Part shown: positions 8,398 to 20,078 of the stretch, piece by piece
Position numbering within the stretch: position 1 is the first letter of the stretch
How the letters are laid out: every line of letters begins with the position of its first letter
Origin: Deltaproteobacteria bacterium
GTDB lineage: Bacteria > Myxococcota_A > Polyangia > Haliangiales > SHYZ01
NCBI GenBank assembly: GCA_016210055.1
Contig: JACQUZ010000126.1
Span: forward strand, 33,586-97,585
Reading direction: 5' to 3'
DNA length: 64,000 bases
Notes under the pieces: model-generated
The model's database searches: none
Told to the model about the DNA's origin: nothing
What the model saw: the letters and a program-made list of their open reading frames with translations, nothing else
Position numbers and translations under genes: made by a program

Positions 8398-10047
8398 TCA
8401 ATTGCCGCGCCATCTCTGCGCGATGGGCATCCTTCTCCCCGGGCCAAAGGCCTTGGACGTGAGCTTCAATCCAGGGGCCGCCTGCCTCCGCTTGTACTCG
8501 TTCACCCGCACCATGCGGAGCACGTCATTGACAATGCTGGGGTCAAAGCCGCGAGCCACGATATCGGGTGCTTCGAGCTGTTCCTCGACGTGGAGCTCCA
8601 GCACCTGGTCGAGGATGTCGTAGGGAGGCAGCAAGTCCTGATCGACTTGTCCAGGGCGAAGCTCGGCGCTCGGTGGCTTGGTCAGCGTGCTCTCCGGGAT
8701 CACCACGCGCCCTGCCTGTTCATTGACCTTGCGTGCCAGGCGATAAACCATCGTCTTGGGCACGTCGCTGATGACGGCGAGACCGCCTGCCATGTCGCCG
8801 TACAGCGTGCAGTAGCCGACCGCGAGCTCGCTCTTGTTGCCGGTGGTCAGGAGCAAGTGACCGAACTTGTTCGAAAGGGCCATGAGGATCACGCCGCGGC
8901 AGCGCGCCTGGATGTTTTCTTCGGCTACTCCCGGCGCAGTCCCCTTGAATGCTGGCGCGAGGGCGTCCAAGAACGCCGAAAAGGGGCCCTCAATGGGAAT
9001 CGTCTCGAACGCGATGCCCAGGTGGCGAGCGAGCTCCTCAGCGTCGTCTTTAGAGTGCTGCGACGAGAAGCGCGACGGCATGGAGACGCCCAGCACGTTC
9101 TTTGGGCCGAGCGCGCGAACCGCGATGCTGGCCACGAGGGCCGAGTCGACGCCACCCGAAAGCCCGATCACCGCGGAACGAAAGCCGCACTTGTGGGCGT
9201 AGTCTCGCGTCCCCATCACCAGCGCGTCGAGCGCGGCTTCCGTGTCGTCCTTGAGGTCGCGTATCGCGCCCGTGCCCTGGGCAAGATCCACGATGACCAA
9301 GTCCTCCTCGAACTCGCGGGCGCGGGCGATAATCGTTCCACTCGCGTCAAAGGCTAGGGAGTGCCCATCGAACAAGAGGTCGTCGTTTCCTCCGACCTGA
9401 TTCACGAAAACGAGGGGCCGTCGGTGCTTTCTCGCCTGCGCTGCGAGCATTCGAGGTCTCAGCGTGCGCTTGTCCATCGTGAACGGCGAGGCCGAGATGT
9501 TGAGGAGCACCTCCGCGCCCCGCTCGACCAGGGTGGCAATCGGGTCGAGCGGGTAGAGGCGCAGCTTCCAGAAGTCGGGATCGTTCCAGATGTCTTCACA
9601 GATCGAGAGCCCCATGCGACGTCCCATCACCGCTACGGGGACAACGTCCGCGAGGAGCGCGGGCTCGAAGTGGCGGTGCTCGTCGAAAACGTCATAGGTC
9701 GGAAGGAGCGCCTTGTGGTGAATGGAGACTACCTTGCCTCCTCCCACCAGCGCTGCCGCGTTGTAGATGCGCCGGCCCACTGTCCTCGTGGGATCGTGAT
9801 CCACGAAGCCGACGATGGTGTGGATCGAGGCGCGCTGCGCCACCTCTTCGAGCGCAGCCTTCCCCGCAGAGACAAACCGATCTCGCTCAAGGAGGTCCTT
9901 GGGTGGGTACCCGCACAGGGACAGCTCACTGGTCACTGCCAGGTCGGCGCCAAGCGCCTTGGCCTTCTCCACCGAGGAGAGGATCTTCTCGACATTCCCC
10001 TGGTAGTCGCCGACGACGAAGTTGCGCTGGATCATGCCGATCTTCAT
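8398..10047 (-). CDS. nadE: glutamine-dependent NAD+ synthetase
   Basis: 549 aa. N-terminal CN-hydrolase (nitrilase-like) domain, then a C-terminal NAD synthetase PP-loop (GLSGGVDSALV). Size fits the fused NadE type. Confidence 0.93.
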   Translation of the reverse strand: MKIGMIQRNFVVGDYQGNVEKILSSVEKAKALGADLAVTSELSLCGYPPKDLLERDRFVSAGKAALEEVAQRASIHTIVGFVDHDPTRTVGRRIYNAAALVGGGKVVSIHHKALLPTYDVFDEHRHFEPALLADVVPVAVMGRRMGLSICEDIWNDPDFWKLRLYPLDPIATLVERGAEVLLNISASPFTMDKRTLRPRMLAAQARKHRRPLVFVNQVGGNDDLLFDGHSLAFDASGTIIARAREFEEDLVIVDLAQGTGAIRDLKDDTEAALDALVMGTRDYAHKCGFRSAVIGLSGGVDSALVASIAVRALGPKNVLGVSMPSRFSSQHSKDDAEELARHLGIAFETIPIEGPFSAFLDALAPAFKGTAPGVAEENIQARCRGVILMALSNKFGHLLLTTGNKSELAVGYCTLYGDMAGGLAVISDVPKTMVYRLARKVNEQAGRVVIPESTLTKPPSAELRPGQVDQDLLPPYDILDQVLELHVEEQLEAPDIVARGFDPSIVNDVLRMVRVNEYKRRQAAPGLKLTSKAFGPGRRMPIAQRWRGN

Positions 10048-10069: not shown

Positions 10070-11743
10070 TCATCGCTCACCGCTCACCGCCGGTGCCAAG
10101 CGCTCGCTGCCCGGCGTCGCGGCGACGACCTCATGCGGCCCGTACGGCATGTCGATGGGAACCGTGAGCTCGACGGAAAACCGACCATGGTCGTCGGTGA
10201 GGACATGACCGATAAGGCGAGCGCTCCGTCCGGCACGATGCGCCTTGGCGAGGTAGAGGTATACCTGGATGCTCGCGGCGGCCGCCGGATCCTCGGCCAT
10301 GAGCTGTCCGGTGACGCCGAGCGTTTCACCCACGTAGCCGTGTGGGTCGGAGCTTTCGACGATGAGACGAGACCTGACCTTTCCCACGAGATCCGACGGG
10401 GTCACCCGGGGAAGTTCCTCCTCGCGGGAACCGGTGGAAAAGGACGTGGATGGGTCGGATTCGCCCGCGTGGGCCCGCGACGCGGCTCGTTGGGCCTCGG
10501 AGAGCCCGTGCACGACTCCTCCCAGTCGGCTGTAACTCCGCGCGAAGGACGGTGGCTTGGGGAAAGGATCGGGATTTCGGGGGTGGTGCATCGCCTTGCC
10601 AGCCGCGTTGGCCACCCCGAGCTCGAGGGCGGCTCCCCCCAGGTCCACTCGGATCCACCCCACGCCTGGCACCCAGATCTCCACGAACGCGTGCGCCTCG
10701 TTGCTAACGTACCGAGCCGGGATGCCGAGGGCGTTGGCGGTGACTATGAAGGCGAAGGCGCGGTGGCGGCACGCCCCCCGGCGGGAGGTCGTGAGGTCAA
10801 CGTAGATGTCATCGCTCACGCTGGCTAGCGCGCCGACCTCGAAGGAGCGGAAGGCGTCCACCAACCGATCGATGACCACATGGAGAGGAAGCGCCGCCGT
10901 CACGTTCAGGGATGGAAGCATCGCGAGGACGGCTCGGTGCGCGCGGGGAGGGACGGGGCGCACGAGATCCGAGGCAGTCGCCTCATCTATCCGAAGGCCG
11001 CGAGGGATGGCCGAGCTGAAGTAGCTCGCCGGGGCGTCGACGAGGAACACGAGGCGCAACCGCGTCTCGACGCGCAAGCCTTCGGCCCGAACGTAATAAC
11101 TGTCCGCACCATCCTTGGAAAAGACGAGGTTCGCCGCGGGCTCCGTTTCATAAGAGAGGACGCGCATGTCGGGCGCCACCGACGGTATCGCCACGTCTTC
11201 TCCCGGACGCAGCTCCAAGAGCAGGGAGCCCCAGAACAGGTCACGATCGGCACTCGCGGCGCCGCCCACTGGAACGTGCCGAAGGTGCTTGTCGTGCACG
11301 CGAAGCACGTAGTCGTTCCCCACGGCATCGAAGACGTTCATGCGCTTGAACGGCAGGATCGAGGGGTTGAAGACCTCGGCGTAGTCGAGCCGCCCGTCGA
11401 CCCGCGTCTCTCGATCGGGGCGGACCTGGGTGTCCCTGTCCACGGGCGAGCCCTCACGCCCGTGCAGTGGCTCCGCCTTGGCCGGAGGTGCGTCCTTGGA
11501 CGGCTTGACGAGGAGCATGTCGTTTTGGCGAAACGCGGCCGGGCCCAGCCCGGCCAGAGCGCCGCTTCGAACCAGGGTGGGCGGGACCGCGACTTGGCGC
11601 TCGCCTGGCGTCGCCAGGACCTGGGCGCTCCGTTCCCGTGGCGGCGCCACGTACTCGTGGAGGACCGGCTCCGAGTCGCCCAGCGCGAGCGATCCTCCCA
11701 GAATCAAGAGAGTCGCCAACGCGAGCCTGGAAGACCAGCGCAC
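10070..11743 (-). CDS. secreted transglutaminase-like domain protein with C-terminal CarboxypepD_reg-like beta-sandwich
   Basis: Signal peptide MRWSSRLALATLLILGGSLALG. Transglutaminase-core Cys/His/Asp context (RGACRHRAFAFIV..NEAHAFVEIWV..WIRVDLGG). C-terminal GVTGQL..HVLTDDHGRFSVELTVP motif. Confidence 0.75.
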   Translation of the reverse strand: MRWSSRLALATLLILGGSLALGDSEPVLHEYVAPPRERSAQVLATPGERQVAVPPTLVRSGALAGLGPAAFRQNDMLLVKPSKDAPPAKAEPLHGREGSPVDRDTQVRPDRETRVDGRLDYAEVFNPSILPFKRMNVFDAVGNDYVLRVHDKHLRHVPVGGAASADRDLFWGSLLLELRPGEDVAIPSVAPDMRVLSYETEPAANLVFSKDGADSYYVRAEGLRVETRLRLVFLVDAPASYFSSAIPRGLRIDEATASDLVRPVPPRAHRAVLAMLPSLNVTAALPLHVVIDRLVDAFRSFEVGALASVSDDIYVDLTTSRRGACRHRAFAFIVTANALGIPARYVSNEAHAFVEIWVPGVGWIRVDLGGAALELGVANAAGKAMHHPRNPDPFPKPPSFARSYSRLGGVVHGLSEAQRAASRAHAGESDPSTSFSTGSREEELPRVTPSDLVGKVRSRLIVESSDPHGYVGETLGVTGQLMAEDPAAAASIQVYLYLAKAHRAGRSARLIGHVLTDDHGRFSVELTVPIDMPYGPHEVVAATPGSERLAPAVSGER

Positions 11744-11768: not shown

Positions 11769-14700
11769 CTAGTTCTTCTTCACGCACGTCCCGCAGTCGG
11801 TTGCGCAGCTCGCGCAGCTTTCCCCCTCGTCGAACTGGCAACGGGCGTCACTGCAGGCGCCGCCGCAGGTCAAGCCGCAGTACTCCTGCACCTGCCAGGC
11901 GCACGTGGCGTCCCACCCCGTGACGCAGCAGTACGAGTCCACGTCGCAGATCTTCTTGACGCACGGATCGCACAGCGGGCTGAGCGGGACGCCGAGGGCG
12001 CACAGGGAGTGCGAGCAGGTCGTGGCCCCGCAGTCTGCCTCGCAGGTTCCCGGGGTCTCGTCCATGTCGCATTGCCCGTTGCCGCACTTGGTAGCCTGGT
12101 CGGAACAAGCGCCGCAATCATCTGGGCATGAGCGACAGCTCTCGCCGCTGAACGCGTCGCACAGCTTGTCGCCGCACGTGGTTGCGCAGGGCTGGCAGTC
12201 GAGGGCGCAAGTGCTGCAGGTCTCCGACTCGCTGCACGTGCCGTCTCCGCAGCCTTCCGGGCATGTTCCGCAGTCTGCCGGGCAGTTGCCGCAGGATTCT
12301 CCCGCCCAGGCATGGCAGCTGCCGTCCCCGCAGATGCGCGCGCATGGCCCGCAGTCGTACGGGCAGGTGGCGCAGCTCTCGGAGAGCTCGCACGAGCCAT
12401 TCCCGCACGTGGCCTGGCAGGTGCCGCAATCGGAGGCGCAGCTGGAGCAATTCTCATCCGCGCTGCAGGTACCGTCTCCGCAGGTCGCGCAGCTCTGGTT
12501 GCATGCCCACTGGCTTACTTGGGCGCACACCTCGTCCCAAGAGCCGCTGCAGCAGAATGGGTCGAGCCCGCACACGATCGTGACGCACGGGGAGCACGTG
12601 GCCGGGAGCGGGCCACCTGTCTCGCAGGTGGCATGCGGGCATGGACCACAGGTGCCACAGTCCCCAGGGCACGTGGCGCAGCTCTCGCCGGCCACCTCCT
12701 CGCACGTGTGGTTGCCGCATGTCGCCTTGCACTGGCCGCAGTCACCGGGGCAGGTGAAGCACGTCTCCGGGCCGGCACAGGTGTTGTCGCCGCACACGGG
12801 ACAGGCGCCGCAATCGACGCTGCACGCGCTGCAGGTCTCGGTCGGCGAGCACGTGCCGTCGCCGCACGTCGGGGTGCACTCGCCACAGTCCCCCGCGCAG
12901 GACGTGCAGGTCTCCGATCCGTTGCAGTCGCCGTCGCCGCAGTAGACCGCGCACGCGCCGCAGTCGCCGGGACAAGAGACGCATCCTTCGGCGCCGTTGC
13001 ACGTTCCGTCGCCGCAGGTCGGGGCACACGCGCCACAATCCGTCACGCAGGACGCGCAGGTCTCGTCGCCGTTGCAGTCGCCATCGCCGCACGAGGCCGG
13101 ACAGGGGCCACAGTCAGCCGGGCACGCGTTGCAGTCCTCGGCGACGTCGCAGTTGCCGTCGCCGCAGGCGGGCGCGCAGGCGCCGCAGTCGACGCCGCAG
13201 GTCCTGCAATCCTCGGTGCCGTTGCAGTCACCGTCGCCGCACGCGGGTGCGCACGTGCCGCAGTCGATGGCGCATGTCGTGCAATCCTCGGTGACGTCGC
13301 AGGTACCGTCGCCGCAGGCCGGGGCGCAGGGGTTGCAGTCCAACGGGCAGGTGCGGCAGTCGTCGGTACCATTGCACGCCCCGTCGCCGCATGAGGAAGG
13401 GCATGGCCCACAGTCGTCGGTGCACGTGGCGCAATCCTCGACACCGTTGCACGTGCCATCGCCGCACGTGGGCGCGCAGTCGCCGCAGTCGATGGCGCAT
13501 GTCGCGCAGCCCTCGGTACCATTACACGCGCCGTCGCCACAGGCGGGCACGCAGTCGCCGCAATCGCCTGGGCAGGATGAGCAGGTCTCGATGCCGTTGC
13601 AGGTGCCGTCGCCGCACCTGGGCGGGCAGGGGCCGCAGTCCTTCTCACAGGTCGAGCAGGTCTCGTCGCCGTTGCAGTCGCCGTCGCCGCACGCGGGCGC
13701 GCAGCTCCCGCAGTCAGTGGGGCAGGAGTTGCAGTCCTCGGTGCCGTTGCAGGCGGCGTCCCCGCATGCCGGTGGCGGGCACGGGCCGCAGTCCGCCTCG
13801 CACGTGGAGCACGTCTCGGTGCCGTTGCAATCTGCGTCTCCGCAGCGAGGCGGGCAAGGGCCACAGTCAAGCGGGCAGTCGGAGCATGTCTCGCTTCCGT
13901 CCGTGCAGATGGCGTCGCCGCACGTGGGCGGGCATGGCCCACAGTCCGCCACGCACGTGGAGCAGGACTCGCCGGCGCCTGTGCTGCAGAGCGCGTCGCC
14001 GCAGGTCGGCGCGCATGCTTGGCAATCCTCGGGACAGCCGCCGCAGGTCTCGGTGCCCTCGCACTTGGTGTCACCGCAGACCGCCTGGCACAGGCCGCAG
14101 TCGATGGAGCAGGTGGTGCATGACTCGCCGATACCGGCTTGGCAGGCCGCGTCGCCGCAGAATGGGCAGACGCCGCAGTCCTCTGGGCACGCCCCGCAGC
14201 TCTCGGTCGGATCGCAGGTCTTGTCGCCGCAAGTGCCGGCGCAGGTGCCGCAGTCGATGCAGCCGTTCCCGAGCCCGTCCGCGCACGACTCGCCCCACGA
14301 GCAGGTGCCGTCGCCGCAGACTGGGCAACCGCCGCAGTCTGCCGAGCAGCTGGTGCAATTCTCGCTAGCTTGGCAAAGACCGTCGCCGCAGCCGCCCGTG
14401 CACGTGCAGTCTACGGCGCAGGAGAGGCAGCTCTCGCCCGGGCCGCAGAAGCCGTCGCCGCATGCGCCGGTGCATGGACCGCAGTCGAGCGGGCAGCTCC
14501 CGCACGTCTCGCCCGCAGCCGCGTCGCACGTGTTGTCCACGAGGCAGCTGCCGCAGGTGAGCCCGCACTCCTTGACCGCCTCGCCCACGCATGCGGCGTC
14601 CCAGACCTTGGTGCAGCAGGTCGGGTTGATCGCGCACACGATGGCGGCGCACGAGTCGCAGTAGGCTTTGAGCGGCGTCCCGGACTCGCAGGCGCTGTGG

Positions 14701-15653
14701 CTGCAACCGCCGCTCGGGCAGCAGTCGGCCTCGCAGGTGATGTAATTCTTCGGAGGCGTCGTCGAGCAGGTTTCCCTGTCGCCGCAGATGCCATCCCCGC
14801 ACGACTTGGCCTTGCAGCCGATGAGCTGGCCCTTCCTATTATAGTCGCTGCAGTCACCCGGGCACGTGACGCAGTCCTCGCTCCCCGTGCAGCTATTGTC
14901 CCCGCAGGTCTCGCACGCGCCGCAGTCCACTGCGCAGGTGGAGCAGGACTCTCCGCCAAAGCACGTGCCGTCGCCGCAGAATGGGCAGGCGCCGCAATCC
15001 GCTTGGCAGCTCGCGCAGTCTTCATCGGGGGTGCAGAACCCATCGCCGCAGTATGGGCACGTGCCGCAGTCGGCCGCGCAGCTCGAGCAGGACTCGGTAG
15101 GGACGCTGCACGTGCCGTCGCCACACCCGCCACTGCCACCGCACTTGCCGCAGTCTGCCTCGCAGTTGGTGCAGTCCTCGCTCCCCTGGCACATGGTGTC
15201 GCCGCAGAAAAGGCACTTGCCGCAATCGGCCTCGCAGGTCGCGCAGTCCTCCGCGCCGAAGCAGACGCCGTCGCCGCACTTTGGACACGACCCGCAATCG
15301 GCCTGGCAGGTCGAGCAGTCCTCATTCCCGTCGCAGGTGCCGTCGCCGCAGATGGGGCAGTCGCCGCAGTCTTCCGGGCACGAGGAGCAGTTCTCCTCGC
15401 CGCCGCCGCACGTGCCGTCACCGCACGACGCGCAGCGGCCGCAGTCTCGTCGGCAGGTGGAGCAGGATTCGTTCGGATCGCAAATCCGATTGCGGTTGCA
15501 GACGTGCGTCGCCGATGACGTCGAGTCGATGAAGTCGTCGTCAGGCGGCGCGTCGGTCGGCGGTTTCAAGTTGCATGCACTGAGCCAGAACGCGACGTGA
15601 ATGATCGAAAGGAACCCGATCCATGTTCTTCTATCGCTTTTTTTGTAATGCAC
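11769..15653 (-). CDS. giant cysteine-rich tandem-repeat lipoprotein (function unknown)
   Basis: 1,294 aa. Lipoprotein signal ([11 protein letters not shown]). About 42 repeats of consensus CGDGxC-x(5-8)-C-x2-C-x2-DCG-x-C-x(2-3). Three interspersed ~50-aa 10-Cys modules are also present. Confidence 0.85.
11850..15500 (-). repeat. coding tandem repeat array, ~72-81 bp period (24-27 codons), ~42 units
   Basis: Periodicity is directly visible in the translation. The most regular 75-bp units fall at about 12.9-14.1 kb (CGDGxCNGxExCxxCxxDCGxCxPx). Confidence 0.85.
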
Positions 15654-15792
15654 CCTTCAATGCTAACGGAATTTTGACGGTGCATGGTCAAATAAATGAC
15701 TATTTCTTTAATAGTTTTGGCTACTTGTGGTTATTGCGGGGTCGATGTAATACGACTGCCAATGATTGGCGCGATTGTGCGTGGATCCGCTC
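15654..15792 (-). promoter_or_regulatory. AT-rich intergenic island, probable promoter/5' leader of the Cys-rich lipoprotein gene
   Basis: Conspicuously AT-rich stretch (tttttttgtaatg, aaataaatgactatttctttaatagtttt) in an otherwise GC-rich window, immediately upstream of the 15653 start. No specific -35/-10 elements are assigned. Confidence 0.35.
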
Positions 15793-17739
<1,947 letters not shown>

Positions 17740-17798: not shown

Positions 17799-20078
17799 TC
17801 ATGCCCCGAGCGCGTTGAGCGCCGAGCCTGCGCGGAACCACCCGATCTGCTCCTGATTGAACGTGTGGTTCAGGGAGATGACGTCGATCCTGCCGTCTAC
17901 CTGATGAAGCCTGGCCGTAACGGGCTTTCCAGGCGTGAGGCCCGCGAGGCCTACCAGGCTAATCCTCGTGAGCTCGCCGACCTTGTCGTAATCGGCAGCG
18001 CTCGTGAAGGTGAGAGGAAGGATCCCCTGTTTCTTCAGGTTTGTCTCATGTATCCGCGCGAAGGAGCGAGTAATGACCGCCGCGCACCCGAGGTGCCTCG
18101 GGGACATGGCCGCATGCTCGCGGCTCGAGCCCTCGCCATAGTTGACGTCGCCAACTGCAATCCATCTCATGCCGCGCACCTTGTAATGGCGCGCGATTTC
18201 GGGGAGGAGCTTCCCCTTTTCACCGGTCTCGACGTTCGTCCCTCGTCCCGCCTCCGCCGCGAAGGAGTTCTGCGCGCCGGTGAACATGTTGTCGCTGATC
18301 TTGTCCAGGTGCCCGCGGTACTTGAGCCACGGCCCTGCCGGCGAGATATGGTCCGTGGTGCACTTCCCCTTGGCCTTCAAAAGGACGGGCAGCTCGACGT
18401 AGTCATTTCCATCCCAACGGCCAAACGGCACGAGGCGCTGCAGGCGCTCGCTGTTCTCCGCGATGTTCACCTGGACCTTGTCTCCGTTCTCGGCGGGATC
18501 CGCGTACCCCGACTCGCCGGGGGCAAACCCCAGCGTGGGGACCTCGGGCGCCTTGCCTGGGGGCTCAAGCTTGAACTTCTGCCCGTTATTCCCCTCGAGA
18601 ACGTCCCCTTGCGGGTCAAACGAGAGCCTGCCCGCGAGCGAGTACGCAATCACGATCTCGGGCGAGGCGATGAACGCGGAGGTCTCGGGGTTGGAGTCGT
18701 TGCGAGCCCTGAAGTTCCGATTGAACGACGTGATAATCGAGTTCCTATCCCCCTTCTTGATATCGTCGCGCTTCCACTGGCCAATGCACGGGCCACAGGA
18801 GTTGGAGAGGACCACCGCACCGATCTGCTCGAGGGCGCGGAGCTGCCCGTCGCGGGTAATGGTGGCGCGAATTTGCTCCGACCCTGGTGATACGAAGAGG
18901 GTGGTCTTGGCCTTGAGACCGAGCGCGCTGGCTTGCATGGCCACGTCGGCGGCGCGGGCGAGATCCTCGTACGAGCTGTTCGTGCAGCTCCCGATGAGCG
19001 CCGAGGTCAGGTTGTCCGGGTACCCTTCGCTCGCCACCGCCTTGGCGAGCGCCGAAATCGGGCGTGCGAGATCGGGCGTGTGGGGACCGACGACGTGGGG
19101 CTCCAGCTTCGCGAGGTCGATTTCAATGACCTTGTCGAAGAACTTTTCTGGATGCTCCTCGACCTCGCGATCGGCCCGGAGCATGTCTTGGTGCGCCTCG
19201 GCGAGCTCGGCCAGCTTAGGACGTCCGGTCCCTCGCAGGTAGGTCGCCATCTTCTCGTCAAAGGGGAAGATCGACGTGGTGGCCCCGAGCTCGGCGCCCA
19301 TGTTCGTGATGGTTCCCTTGCCCGTGCAGCTGATGTTGCGCGCCCCGGGACCAAAGTACTCGATGATCCGGTTGGTGCCGCCGGCCGTGGTGAGGAGCCC
19401 GAGGAGGTAAAGAATGACATCCTTGGGTGCCGTCCAGCCGCCGAGCTCGCCCGTCAAGCGAACGCCGATGAGCTTGGGTTGCAGGACTTCCCACGAGAAA
19501 CCGGCCATCACGTCGACAGCATCCGCCCCGCCCACGCCGCAGGCGATCATGCCGAGCCCACCGGCGTTCGGCGTGTGGGAGTCGGTCCCGATGATCATGC
19601 CGCCGGGGAACGCGTAGTTCTCGAGGACGACTTGGTGGATGATTCCTGCACCGGGCTTCCAGAATCCGATGCCGTACTTCTGCGATACCGAGGCGAGGAA
19701 GTCGTATACCTCGCCATTTTCGGTCAGGGCGAGCTCGGTGTCCTTCTGCGCACCGAGCTGGGCGCGGATCAGGTGGTCGCAGTGCACGGTCGACGGCACG
19801 GCCACCCGTTTTCGCCCTGCGGACATGAACTGCAGGAGCGCCATCTGCGCAGTGGCATCTTGCATGGCCACCCGGTCGGGTCGGAGCTGCAGGTAGGACT
19901 CGCCAGCTCGGAGCTCGGCGCTCGCAGGGTCATCGAGATGTGAAAAAACAACTTTCTCGGCGAAAGTAAGGGGACGACCCAAGCGCTTGCGGACAACCGC
20001 GAGCTTCGCGTCCATGGTGGAGTAAACGCGCGTGACAAGTTCGGGTGAAGACTCAGTGGTGTGCACGAAAACCTCCAT
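17799..20078 (-). CDS. acnA: aconitate hydratase (mitochondrial-type, ~755-aa class)
   Basis: 759 aa. Fe-S ligand contexts (GTDSHTPNAGGLG, IGSCTNSSYED, NSCGPCIGQW). C-terminal swivel domain (GDVNYGEGSSREHAA). Confidence 0.93.
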   Translation of the reverse strand: MEVFVHTTESSPELVTRVYSTMDAKLAVVRKRLGRPLTFAEKVVFSHLDDPASAELRAGESYLQLRPDRVAMQDATAQMALLQFMSAGRKRVAVPSTVHCDHLIRAQLGAQKDTELALTENGEVYDFLASVSQKYGIGFWKPGAGIIHQVVLENYAFPGGMIIGTDSHTPNAGGLGMIACGVGGADAVDVMAGFSWEVLQPKLIGVRLTGELGGWTAPKDVILYLLGLLTTAGGTNRIIEYFGPGARNISCTGKGTITNMGAELGATTSIFPFDEKMATYLRGTGRPKLAELAEAHQDMLRADREVEEHPEKFFDKVIEIDLAKLEPHVVGPHTPDLARPISALAKAVASEGYPDNLTSALIGSCTNSSYEDLARAADVAMQASALGLKAKTTLFVSPGSEQIRATITRDGQLRALEQIGAVVLSNSCGPCIGQWKRDDIKKGDRNSIITSFNRNFRARNDSNPETSAFIASPEIVIAYSLAGRLSFDPQGDVLEGNNGQKFKLEPPGKAPEVPTLGFAPGESGYADPAENGDKVQVNIAENSERLQRLVPFGRWDGNDYVELPVLLKAKGKCTTDHISPAGPWLKYRGHLDKISDNMFTGAQNSFAAEAGRGTNVETGEKGKLLPEIARHYKVRGMRWIAVGDVNYGEGSSREHAAMSPRHLGCAAVITRSFARIHETNLKKQGILPLTFTSAADYDKVGELTRISLVGLAGLTPGKPVTARLHQVDGRIDVISLNHTFNQEQIGWFRAGSALNALGA

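Follow-up and report, generated by a model that had tools for sequence, protein, structure and literature searches.

The gene studied here lies on the minus strand of a 64,000-nucleotide stretch of DNA (the window) from contig JACQUZ010000126.1 of a Deltaproteobacteria bacterium of the Haliangiales, and encodes a protein of 1,294 amino acids (aa), of which 281 (21.7%) are Cys. We detected 42 genuine tandem six-Cys units of 24-35 aa each in this protein, covering about 85% of its length. The repeat is an uncurated family without an entry in Pfam, NCBIfam or PDB, and yet it occurs in at least 5,055 representative clusters. We suggest, with fair confidence, that the protein is Sec-exported and lipid-anchored in the cell envelope and that it forms an acidic, disulfide-stapled rod of variable length bearing DUF8252 knobs, a structural fibril or spacer.

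The six-Cys unit

The units were parsed with a hidden Markov model (HMM) built from the 12 most regular ones, which matched 45 segments, 3 of them spurious and located inside inserts. Per-unit E-values down to 1e-14 place the array far beyond chance. An earlier sequence-only reading had given the coordinates and length of the open reading frame (ORF), a number of about 42 units and the Cys fraction in agreement with the ORF list and with this HMM; its figure of five Cys per unit has to be corrected to six, which is also the number contained in the pattern it had written down.

The consensus of the unit was obtained by iterating the HMM, seeded with the units of the query protein, over the query together with the 120 top-ranking homologues, which yielded 1,982 units in 121 proteins. 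It reads C1-G-[DN]-G-x-C2-x3-E10-x-C3-x-[TS]-C4-P-x-D18-C5-G-x-C6-P-x-x, with a Cys spacing of 4/5(7)/2/3/2. Four of the Cys (C1, C2, C4 and C5) are near-invariant, and so are E10 (1970/1982) and D18 (1974/1982), while position 3 is Asp or Asn in 1963 of the 1982 units. Two spacings are fixed, C1-4-C2 in 1965 and C4-3-C5 in 1962 of 1966 units; C2-8-C4 is found in most units, and a variant with 10 residues exists.

Both C3 and C6 are present in 1,700 units and both are absent in 201 units from 25 proteins (n=1,966), whereas one or the other is missing singly in at most 65 units, mostly through artefacts of the counting rule, which misreads C6-P-D as the start of the next unit. A natural four-Cys unit exists, for example CGDGFCNGSESWATCPADCPPA in P0015 (homologues are numbered P0001 and upwards). 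Since C3 and C6 are lost jointly and the other four Cys essentially never, the simplest reading of the co-loss points to a C3-C6 disulfide within each unit, and thus to self-contained beads. Two more disulfides would be formed among C1, C2, C4 and C5 of the same unit, and by comparison with DUF4215 our guess for their pairing would be C1-C5 and C2-C4. The odd number of Cys had been taken in the sequence-only reading as a sign of inter-repeat disulfides or metal ligation in a knotted array. With six Cys per unit and an even number of Cys in the mature protein (280 besides the lipidated Cys27) this argument has no basis, and the joint loss of C3 and C6 also speaks against it.

The AlphaFold2 (AF2) prediction for six units of the array (aa 655-804, with an alignment of 40 sequences of in-register six-unit windows) gave a mean predicted local distance difference test score (pLDDT) of 80.6 and a predicted template modelling score (pTM) of 0.29, with one four-residue helix per unit at unit positions 16-19 and zero strands. 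Confident units together with a low pTM would be expected of independent beads on a string, and the model predicts units without fixed mutual orientation; the geometry between units is undefined in it, in disagreement with the rod-like knotted array proposed earlier. The Foldseek search of the six-unit model against the PDB returned a single meaningless row, megalin (E=6.8, probability 0.00), and no match was found in PDB sequence searches with the whole protein or with profile A2.

The units are arranged in arrays separated by three inserts (Table 1). The most regular part is the core of the central array, where the 12 units at aa 630-929 have a mean identity of 63% at the protein level (maximum 76%) and 70% at the DNA level. 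The central run of about 14 near-invariant 25-mers reported before is therefore real as a run of 13-14 units with fixed motif positions, but a mean protein identity of 63% is well short of invariance. Similarly, the earlier statement that nearly the whole protein is repeat holds for about 85% of it and overlooked the three inserts of about 52 aa. The last two units of the N-terminal array (aa 250 and aa 285) are degenerate, and the last unit of the distal array (aa 1190) is without C3 and C6. The mature protein has 201 acidic and 35 basic residues, with a calculated pI of 4.05. No further copies of the six-Cys repeat or of the insert were detected elsewhere in the 64-kb window.

Membrane anchor, family members and DUF8252 inserts

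The N-terminus, read from the sequence, has the features of a lipoprotein processed by signal peptidase II, namely a basic n-region, a hydrophobic h-region and the lipobox L-S-A-C27, in line with the lipoprotein signal noticed earlier. The GTG at 15653 is the sole in-frame start upstream of the lipobox. No Tat-signal (twin-arginine translocation) model matched the protein in the NCBIfam scan, and no C-terminal sorting tag was seen on reading the terminal unit (aa 1264-1294). A lipobox-like N-terminus was detected by a crude regular expression in about 40% of the 227 family members examined, and several homologues are lipoproteins or have C-terminal anchors. The protein is predicted to be a lipid-anchored bacterial lipoprotein, presumably exposed at the surface.

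The first homologue search found 654 proteins at E<=1e-3 among 8,000 candidates scored. The exhaustive search of 1.84 billion cluster representatives with a profile, which was also a check proposed with the sequence-only reading (an HMM of the 25-mer), found 5,055 at E<=1e-3; the number falls to 2,092 at E<=1e-10 and to 385 at E<=1e-30. The other proposed check, for a characterised repeat family, gave none: Pfam and NCBIfam scans matched zero families for the whole protein (E<=1), for a three-unit fragment and for each insert (fragments to E<=10). The query tops the 227 family members examined in the number of units and in repeat coverage, for which the medians are 13 units and 35%. The named sources of matches are metagenome-assembled genomes (MAGs) of Myxococcota/'Deltaproteobacteria', Polyangiaceae, Haliangium, Sorangium and one protein of Candidatus Staskawiczbacteria, and the expectation that the same repeat is found in surface proteins of uncultured lineages was thereby confirmed. 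The literature on the CGDG motif and on Cys-rich repeats of Patescibacteria yielded no description of the six-Cys repeat.

The fusion partners of the repeat in homologues are extracellular modules throughout: lamin-tail (LTD), DUF11/CLIPPER, SdrD_B, CarboxypepD_reg, OmpA, FG-GAP/VCBS, cohesin, PPC-like, M36-like peptidases and DUF4215. Across the family most clusters show such fusions, and the types of extracellular domain involved number in the dozens. The repeat-dominated homologues P0024, P0027 and P0038 have no Pfam annotation whatever. In P0002 and P0029 a PPC-like (pre-peptidase C-terminal) domain stands between arrays (…TGSTAGLVN…TYSFTAPADGSYEFNTFGSAYDTIL…CNDD…), for example at aa 470-560 and 650-740 of P0029, which scores 25.2 bits against PF04151, slightly under the 25.9-bit cut-off. 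The query is without this PPC-like domain, seen in several relatives.

The three inserts, each of about 52 aa with 10 Cys and helical, share the pattern C-x-H-x2-C-x2-G-x-P-L-x3-C-x2-C-x3-[IV]-C-x2-[DN]-x2-C-C-x3-W-D-x2-C-x7-C-x3-C. Of the 121 proteins, 24 contain the insert according to an HMM of it, with 165 copies in all. The PF26780 (DUF8252) annotation is found on 10 proteins, all of them with the insert, and on none of the 97 proteins free of it; the insert-only profile A3 leads to short single-domain proteins of 43-96 aa with E-values down to 6e-22, and seven of the eight top matches are PF26780. Both results identify the inserts as DUF8252 domains, an assignment made through annotated homologues and on sequence grounds. 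We found no literature description of DUF8252, a family without known function or structure, and its likeness to the query is confined to the inserts and does not extend to the 25-mer repeat.

The AF2 model of aa 1190-1294 predicts insert 3 as three short helices with a core pLDDT of 91-95. No solved structure matched the DUF8252 insert by sequence or by Foldseek against the PDB. In BFVD this model gave only marginal Foldseek rows, with E=0.07-0.2, a probability of 0.87-0.90 and 35-38% identity across 34-43 columns, for a pair of uncharacterised 'Virus NIOZ-UU157' proteins; the six-Cys repeat or DUF8252 may occur also in some viral proteins.

The positions of the last two inserts relative to the C-terminus are kept in relatives: insert 2 is 239 aa from the C-terminus in the query and 233 aa in P0001 and P0004, and insert 3 is 31 aa from it in the query, 30 in P0001 and 29 in P0004. 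The first and the second DUF8252, on the other hand, lie 637 aa (25 units) apart in the query, as against 231 aa in P0001, 157 in P0004 and 305 in P0003. The central array is a lineage-specific expansion between conserved knobs, with 25 units as against roughly 6-12 in the closest relatives. This variation, from 6 to 25 units, suggests that repeat number tunes the reach from the cell surface.

Proposed role and alternative explanations

According to the proposed mechanism the protein would be exported by Sec, lipidated at Cys27 and oxidised to about 140 disulfides. Its chain would then be a series of 42 mini-domains, about 25 residues long and folding independently of one another, each with three internal disulfides and no hydrophobic core. 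The beads would carry the invariant Glu and Asp and would be joined by short Pro/Ala-rich linkers, the outcome being a very acidic (pI about 4), probably protease-resistant, semi-rigid rod, the reach of which would be set by the number of units. Three DUF8252 knobs would interrupt the rod, two of them at the positions near the C-terminus kept in relatives, and these knobs would be the sole candidate binding modules. In homologues the repeat separates extracellular domains, enzymatic or binding, from their anchors; no cargo is present here, which is why we read the protein as a structural fibril or spacer at the cell surface. What we infer for it is that its Cys form disulfides, that it behaves as a rod, that it is exposed at the surface and that it may serve in adhesion or as a spacer.

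Several points weigh against this mechanism. The function and structure of the whole family are predictions from sequences and models. The units share descent, and the Fisher p-value for the C3/C6 co-loss overstates their independence; the unit HMM also leans partly on the Cys columns, a detection bias toward C1, C2, C4 and C5 being never lost. Disulfide formation would follow from the export signals and from the co-loss statistics, and the latter speak for the C3-C6 pair only. The low pTM fits a floppy chain equally well, and rigidity of the rod is a presumption. P0004 has its Cys-rich module beyond a large N-terminal domain, not between anchor and cargo, and the label of a stalk may not fit every context. 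Gene neighbours are not conserved, and synteny yields no functional clue. The final site, whether inner membrane, outer membrane or surface, is putative.

Binding of Ca2+ by the beads through D/N3, E10 and D18, in the manner of LDL-A, cbEGF or TSP type-3 repeats, would make the protein a Ca2+-dependent matrix or adhesion protein, a rod that would need Ca2+ in order to become stiff or to attach to mineral or polyanionic surfaces. This is possible, though rather unlikely in our view, and it would refine the proposed spacer and not replace it. The acidic positions E10 and D18 vary no more than the Cys do, the third position is equally restricted to Asp or Asn, and the excess of acidic over basic residues gives a strong negative charge; the sole, non-significant Foldseek row, megalin, is a protein built of LDL-A and EGF repeats. 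That row is however meaningless by its scores, Ldl_recept_a, EGF_CA and TSP_3 have no Pfam match in the query, and three acidic side chains per 25 residues do not alone make a Ca2+ site, since they may instead cap the helical turn or hydrogen-bond the backbone.

The high Cys content could alternatively reflect metal-thiolate chemistry, with the Cys ligating Cu, Zn or Cd as in metallothioneins, or forming clusters similar to Fe-S clusters on the CxxCxxxCxxCP half of each unit, in a metal sponge or electron conduit of the envelope. The second half of the unit, C-x2-C-x3-C-x2-C-P, resembles a ferredoxin motif, the homologue cluster P0119 carries the UniRef name '4Fe-4S ferredoxin-type d...', and the n-region of the signal peptide has RR followed by hydrophobic residues. 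The ferredoxin motif is CxxCxxCxxxCP, though, and the spacing of the unit, CxxCxxxCxxC, differs from it; no Fer4, metallothionein or Tat-signal model matched in Pfam or NCBIfam, even permissively. The 201 units without C3 and C6 show that these two, out of the four Cys in the half resembling ferredoxin, can be dispensed with as a pair, which fits a disulfide and not a four-ligand cluster, the extracellular partner domains of homologues imply an oxidising environment, and the invariant residues other than Cys are acidic (E10, D18) and not His. Taken together, we consider the metal-thiolate explanation improbable.

The question whether the ORF is spurious, or an assembly artefact in GC-rich repetitive DNA, was addressed by several lines of evidence. 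The G+C content at third codon positions (GC3) is 0.859 in the called Cys frame and 0.80-0.82 in four neighbouring genes, whereas the out-of-phase rival ORFs have only 0.51-0.56. Many ORFs of 300-555 aa do overlap the gene in other frames, for example 12997-14664(+) and 13043-14074(-), and the first of these, which is antisense and in phase, likewise has a high GC3 of 0.87, yet it is without homology support. It is only in the Cys frame that a signal peptide is encoded and that homologues, in their thousands, show conserved Cys, Glu and Asp columns, and the best homologues of the protein reach E=1e-254.

At the DNA level the units match at 67-72% in Tandem Repeats Finder (TRF; periods of 75, 150 and 225 nt, and a period of 72 at 15147-15368 in the N-terminal array), central units do not exceed 84% identity, and exact repeats within the coding sequence reach 27 nt at the longest. 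Such low unit identity together with such short exact repeats makes assembly collapse or expansion unlikely, and collinear homologues are present in three independent assemblies (NCBI, ENA and JGI). Identity between units is 59% at third codon positions, below the 70% of the whole DNA, which fits old repeats kept under purifying selection. The ORF is a genuine gene and an assembly artefact is unlikely; the spurious-ORF explanation, to which we give hardly any credence, is already largely refuted.

Translation of this DNA in other frames deserves an observation of its own. Within 11848-15600, on both strands, the GC-rich repeat DNA yields many long spurious ORFs, among them the PQS-rich 12997-14664(+) of 555 aa and the Ala/Arg-rich 13043-14074(-) of 343 aa, and such regions could be mis-annotated by gene callers, given an antisense ORF that shares the high GC3. 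In P0003 (L083:924-4628) the segment at about aa 420-590 is of low complexity and rich in Arg, Leu and Pro (…RRLRRLRRH…DLRRPEVRRHRDVRDLPERLRPLPELRRRH…). Translation of the repeats in a wrong frame would look like this, and we suspect a frameshift in the assembly of P0003 or a start called wrongly.

A beta-helical ice-binding or antifreeze-like protein, by analogy with insect TmAFP, has in its favour the short periodic Cys-rich repeats with much Thr, Ser, Ala and Gly, but is extremely improbable, as AF2 predicts zero beta strands, Foldseek matches no PDB fold, beta-helices included, and a 25-aa period and a motif with six Cys and acidic invariants are unlike the 12-residue TCT repeats of TmAFP.

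The reading as a lipid-anchored, disulfide-stapled spacer leaves room for a wider suggestion, which we put forward tentatively as possible though short of probable: the 25-residue unit would be an undescribed minimal three-disulfide fold, with one helical turn, neither strands nor a hydrophobic core, and the invariant Glu and Asp perhaps binding Ca2+, used to build rods of tunable length, and it would be among the larger uncurated extracellular repeat families of Myxococcota and related uncultured bacteria. If so, this gene would be the purest natural example of it (42 units, about 85% of the protein) and a natural construct for the determination of the fold and the disulfide map, for which the co-loss of C3 and C6 supplies a concrete proposal open to testing. 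Defining the family would annotate 'hypothetical' stretches in the proteomes of Myxococcota and candidate phyla and would reduce the number of mis-called genes in GC-rich repeats, and the unit, as a compact, hyper-stable scaffold, would be of potential use in protein engineering.

Gene neighbourhood and comparison with known repeat families

The coordinates of the gene, of its parts and of the adjacent genes are collected in Table 1.

Table 1. Parts of the Cys-rich lipoprotein gene and its neighbours; positions are those of the window, residues (aa) those of the encoded protein.
Feature	Position	Strand	Details
Aconitase gene	17799-20078	-	
Thioredoxin-fold and NHL-repeat protein gene	15793-17739	-	648 aa, no signal peptide
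Cys-rich lipoprotein gene, complete coding sequence	11769-15653	-	GTG start, 1,294 aa and stop codon at 11769-11771; ORF list
Predicted lipoprotein signal peptide	15573-15653	-	aa 1-27; n-region KK..RR, hydrophobic h-region, lipobox LSA|C27; sequence reading
N-terminal array	14718-15500	-	aa 52-312, 10 six-Cys units of 24-35 aa; unit parse and TRF
DUF8252-type insert 1	14553-14717	-	aa 313-367; insert HMM match aa 317-367, 55.9 bits
Central array	12645-14552	-	aa 368-1003, 25 six-Cys units; unit parse
Core of central array	12867-13844	-	aa 604-929, 13-14 units of 25-26 aa, most regular sequence
DUF8252-type insert 2	12489-12644	-	aa 1004-1055; insert HMM match 55.2 bits
Distal array	12021-12488	-	aa 1056-1211, 6 units; unit parse
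DUF8252-type insert 3	11865-12020	-	aa 1212-1263; insert HMM match 55.7 bits
Terminal unit	11772-11864	-	aa 1264-1294; unit parse and sequence
Secreted transglutaminase-core protein gene	10070-11743	-	PF01841, E=2.4e-10; signal peptide MRWSSRLALATLLILGGSLALG
NAD synthetase gene	8398-10047	-	

Only 25 bp separate the end of the Cys-rich gene from the start of the transglutaminase-core gene, which has the same orientation, and co-transcription of the two is possible. No close relative of the transglutaminase-core protein was detected in GTDB representative genomes, and the aconitase reaches just 69-70% identity, to genomes from mixed phyla. The protein encoded directly upstream combines a thioredoxin-like/AhpC-TSA fold with the motif WTYCCINC at its N-terminus and, after it, six NHL repeats; being without a signal peptide it is probably cytoplasmic and unrelated to the oxidising of the Cys-rich protein. 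None of the query's neighbours recurs beside the homologues P0001-P0004, and OmpA-family genes are found near three of these four. The 139-bp intergenic region 15654-15792 is markedly AT-rich near the start codon (…aaaactattaaagaaatagtcatttatttgacc…) amid 64-70% GC, and around the Cys-rich gene no promoter-like sites were called in a sigma-70 consensus scan and no terminator-like sites were called.

The DUF4215 repeat (TIGR02232; PF13948) is the first family to compare. The query repeat shares with it the opening half-motif C-G-[DN]-G-x(4-6)-E-x-C, and like it occurs as a tandem Cys-rich repeat in proteins secreted by Myxococcota. The units differ in that those of DUF4215 have four Cys in about 30-47 aa, with CDDGN...DGC, and those of the query six Cys in 25 aa, with C-x2-C-x2-D-C-G-x-C. 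Membership was rejected, as the sequence-only reading had supposed: at thresholds up to E<=10 neither the PF13948 nor the TIGR02232 model matches the query, while as a positive control the same Pfam library matches PF13948 in P0028 (31.7 bits) and, below the 27-bit cut-off, in P0037 (21.2). The hhalign comparison is weak: the local alignment, confined to the first 14 columns, has a probability of 20% (P=1.1e-3), and the global one a probability of 0.4%. DUF4215-type units (CGDG..GE.CDDGN..DGC...C) share polypeptides with the six-Cys repeat in P0028, P0035, P0037, P0043 and 12 others, which hints that the two have a common origin or are swapped as modules.

Two further candidates were rejected. 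TIGR04201, the TraA-type repeat, has no NCBIfam match in the whole protein (E<=1) or in fragments (E<=10). CysRRep (Daugavet et al., bioRxiv 10.64898/2026.06.07.730663), a motif of about 44 aa (Cx6-9Cx5-7Cx8-11Cx7-8CC) that also matches Myxococcota proteins, has seeds resembling neither the 25-mer nor the insert.

Within the phylum, the protein nearest in function by analogy is nevertheless TraA of Myxococcus xanthus: located at the cell surface, it has a region of tandem Cys-rich repeats, which its authors proposed to be a disulfide-bonded rigid stalk presenting a binding domain (PMC3325183). TraA has a PA14 cargo and a MYXO-CTERM anchor, whereas the query has an N-terminal lipobox and no cargo domain.

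Proteins made nearly entirely of tiny disulfide-stapled tandem modules are also represented by CREMP, the DPY modules of Drosophila DUMPY, the Chironomus silk protein Sp185 and EGF arrays (octovafibrin). The spacing of the first three Cys, Cx4Cx5C, is common to EGF, CREMP and the query unit. The CREMP, DPY, Sp185 and EGF modules contain a beta-hairpin and have C1-C3/C2-C4 pairing, while the query unit has one predicted helical turn, no strands and, judging by co-loss, a C3-C6 bond. An EGF-like or LDL-A identity was rejected, with no Pfam, PDB sequence or Foldseek match, and the EGF pairing (C1-C3, C2-C4, C5-C6) is incompatible with the C3-C6 co-loss. These eukaryotic modules have no detectable sequence or fold relation to the query, which is bacterial and lipid-anchored.

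The resemblance is in the arrangement of the chain. Nuclear magnetic resonance of CREMP revealed ordered modules with no inter-module restraints, that is, an extended string (PMC12723725), and the AF2 result for the query, confident units with a low pTM, mirrors this picture. The gene reveals no new biological principle and is an extreme, clean example of its family: the repeat itself forms an uncurated family, while disulfide-rich tandem repeats as extracellular stalks or fibres are already known.

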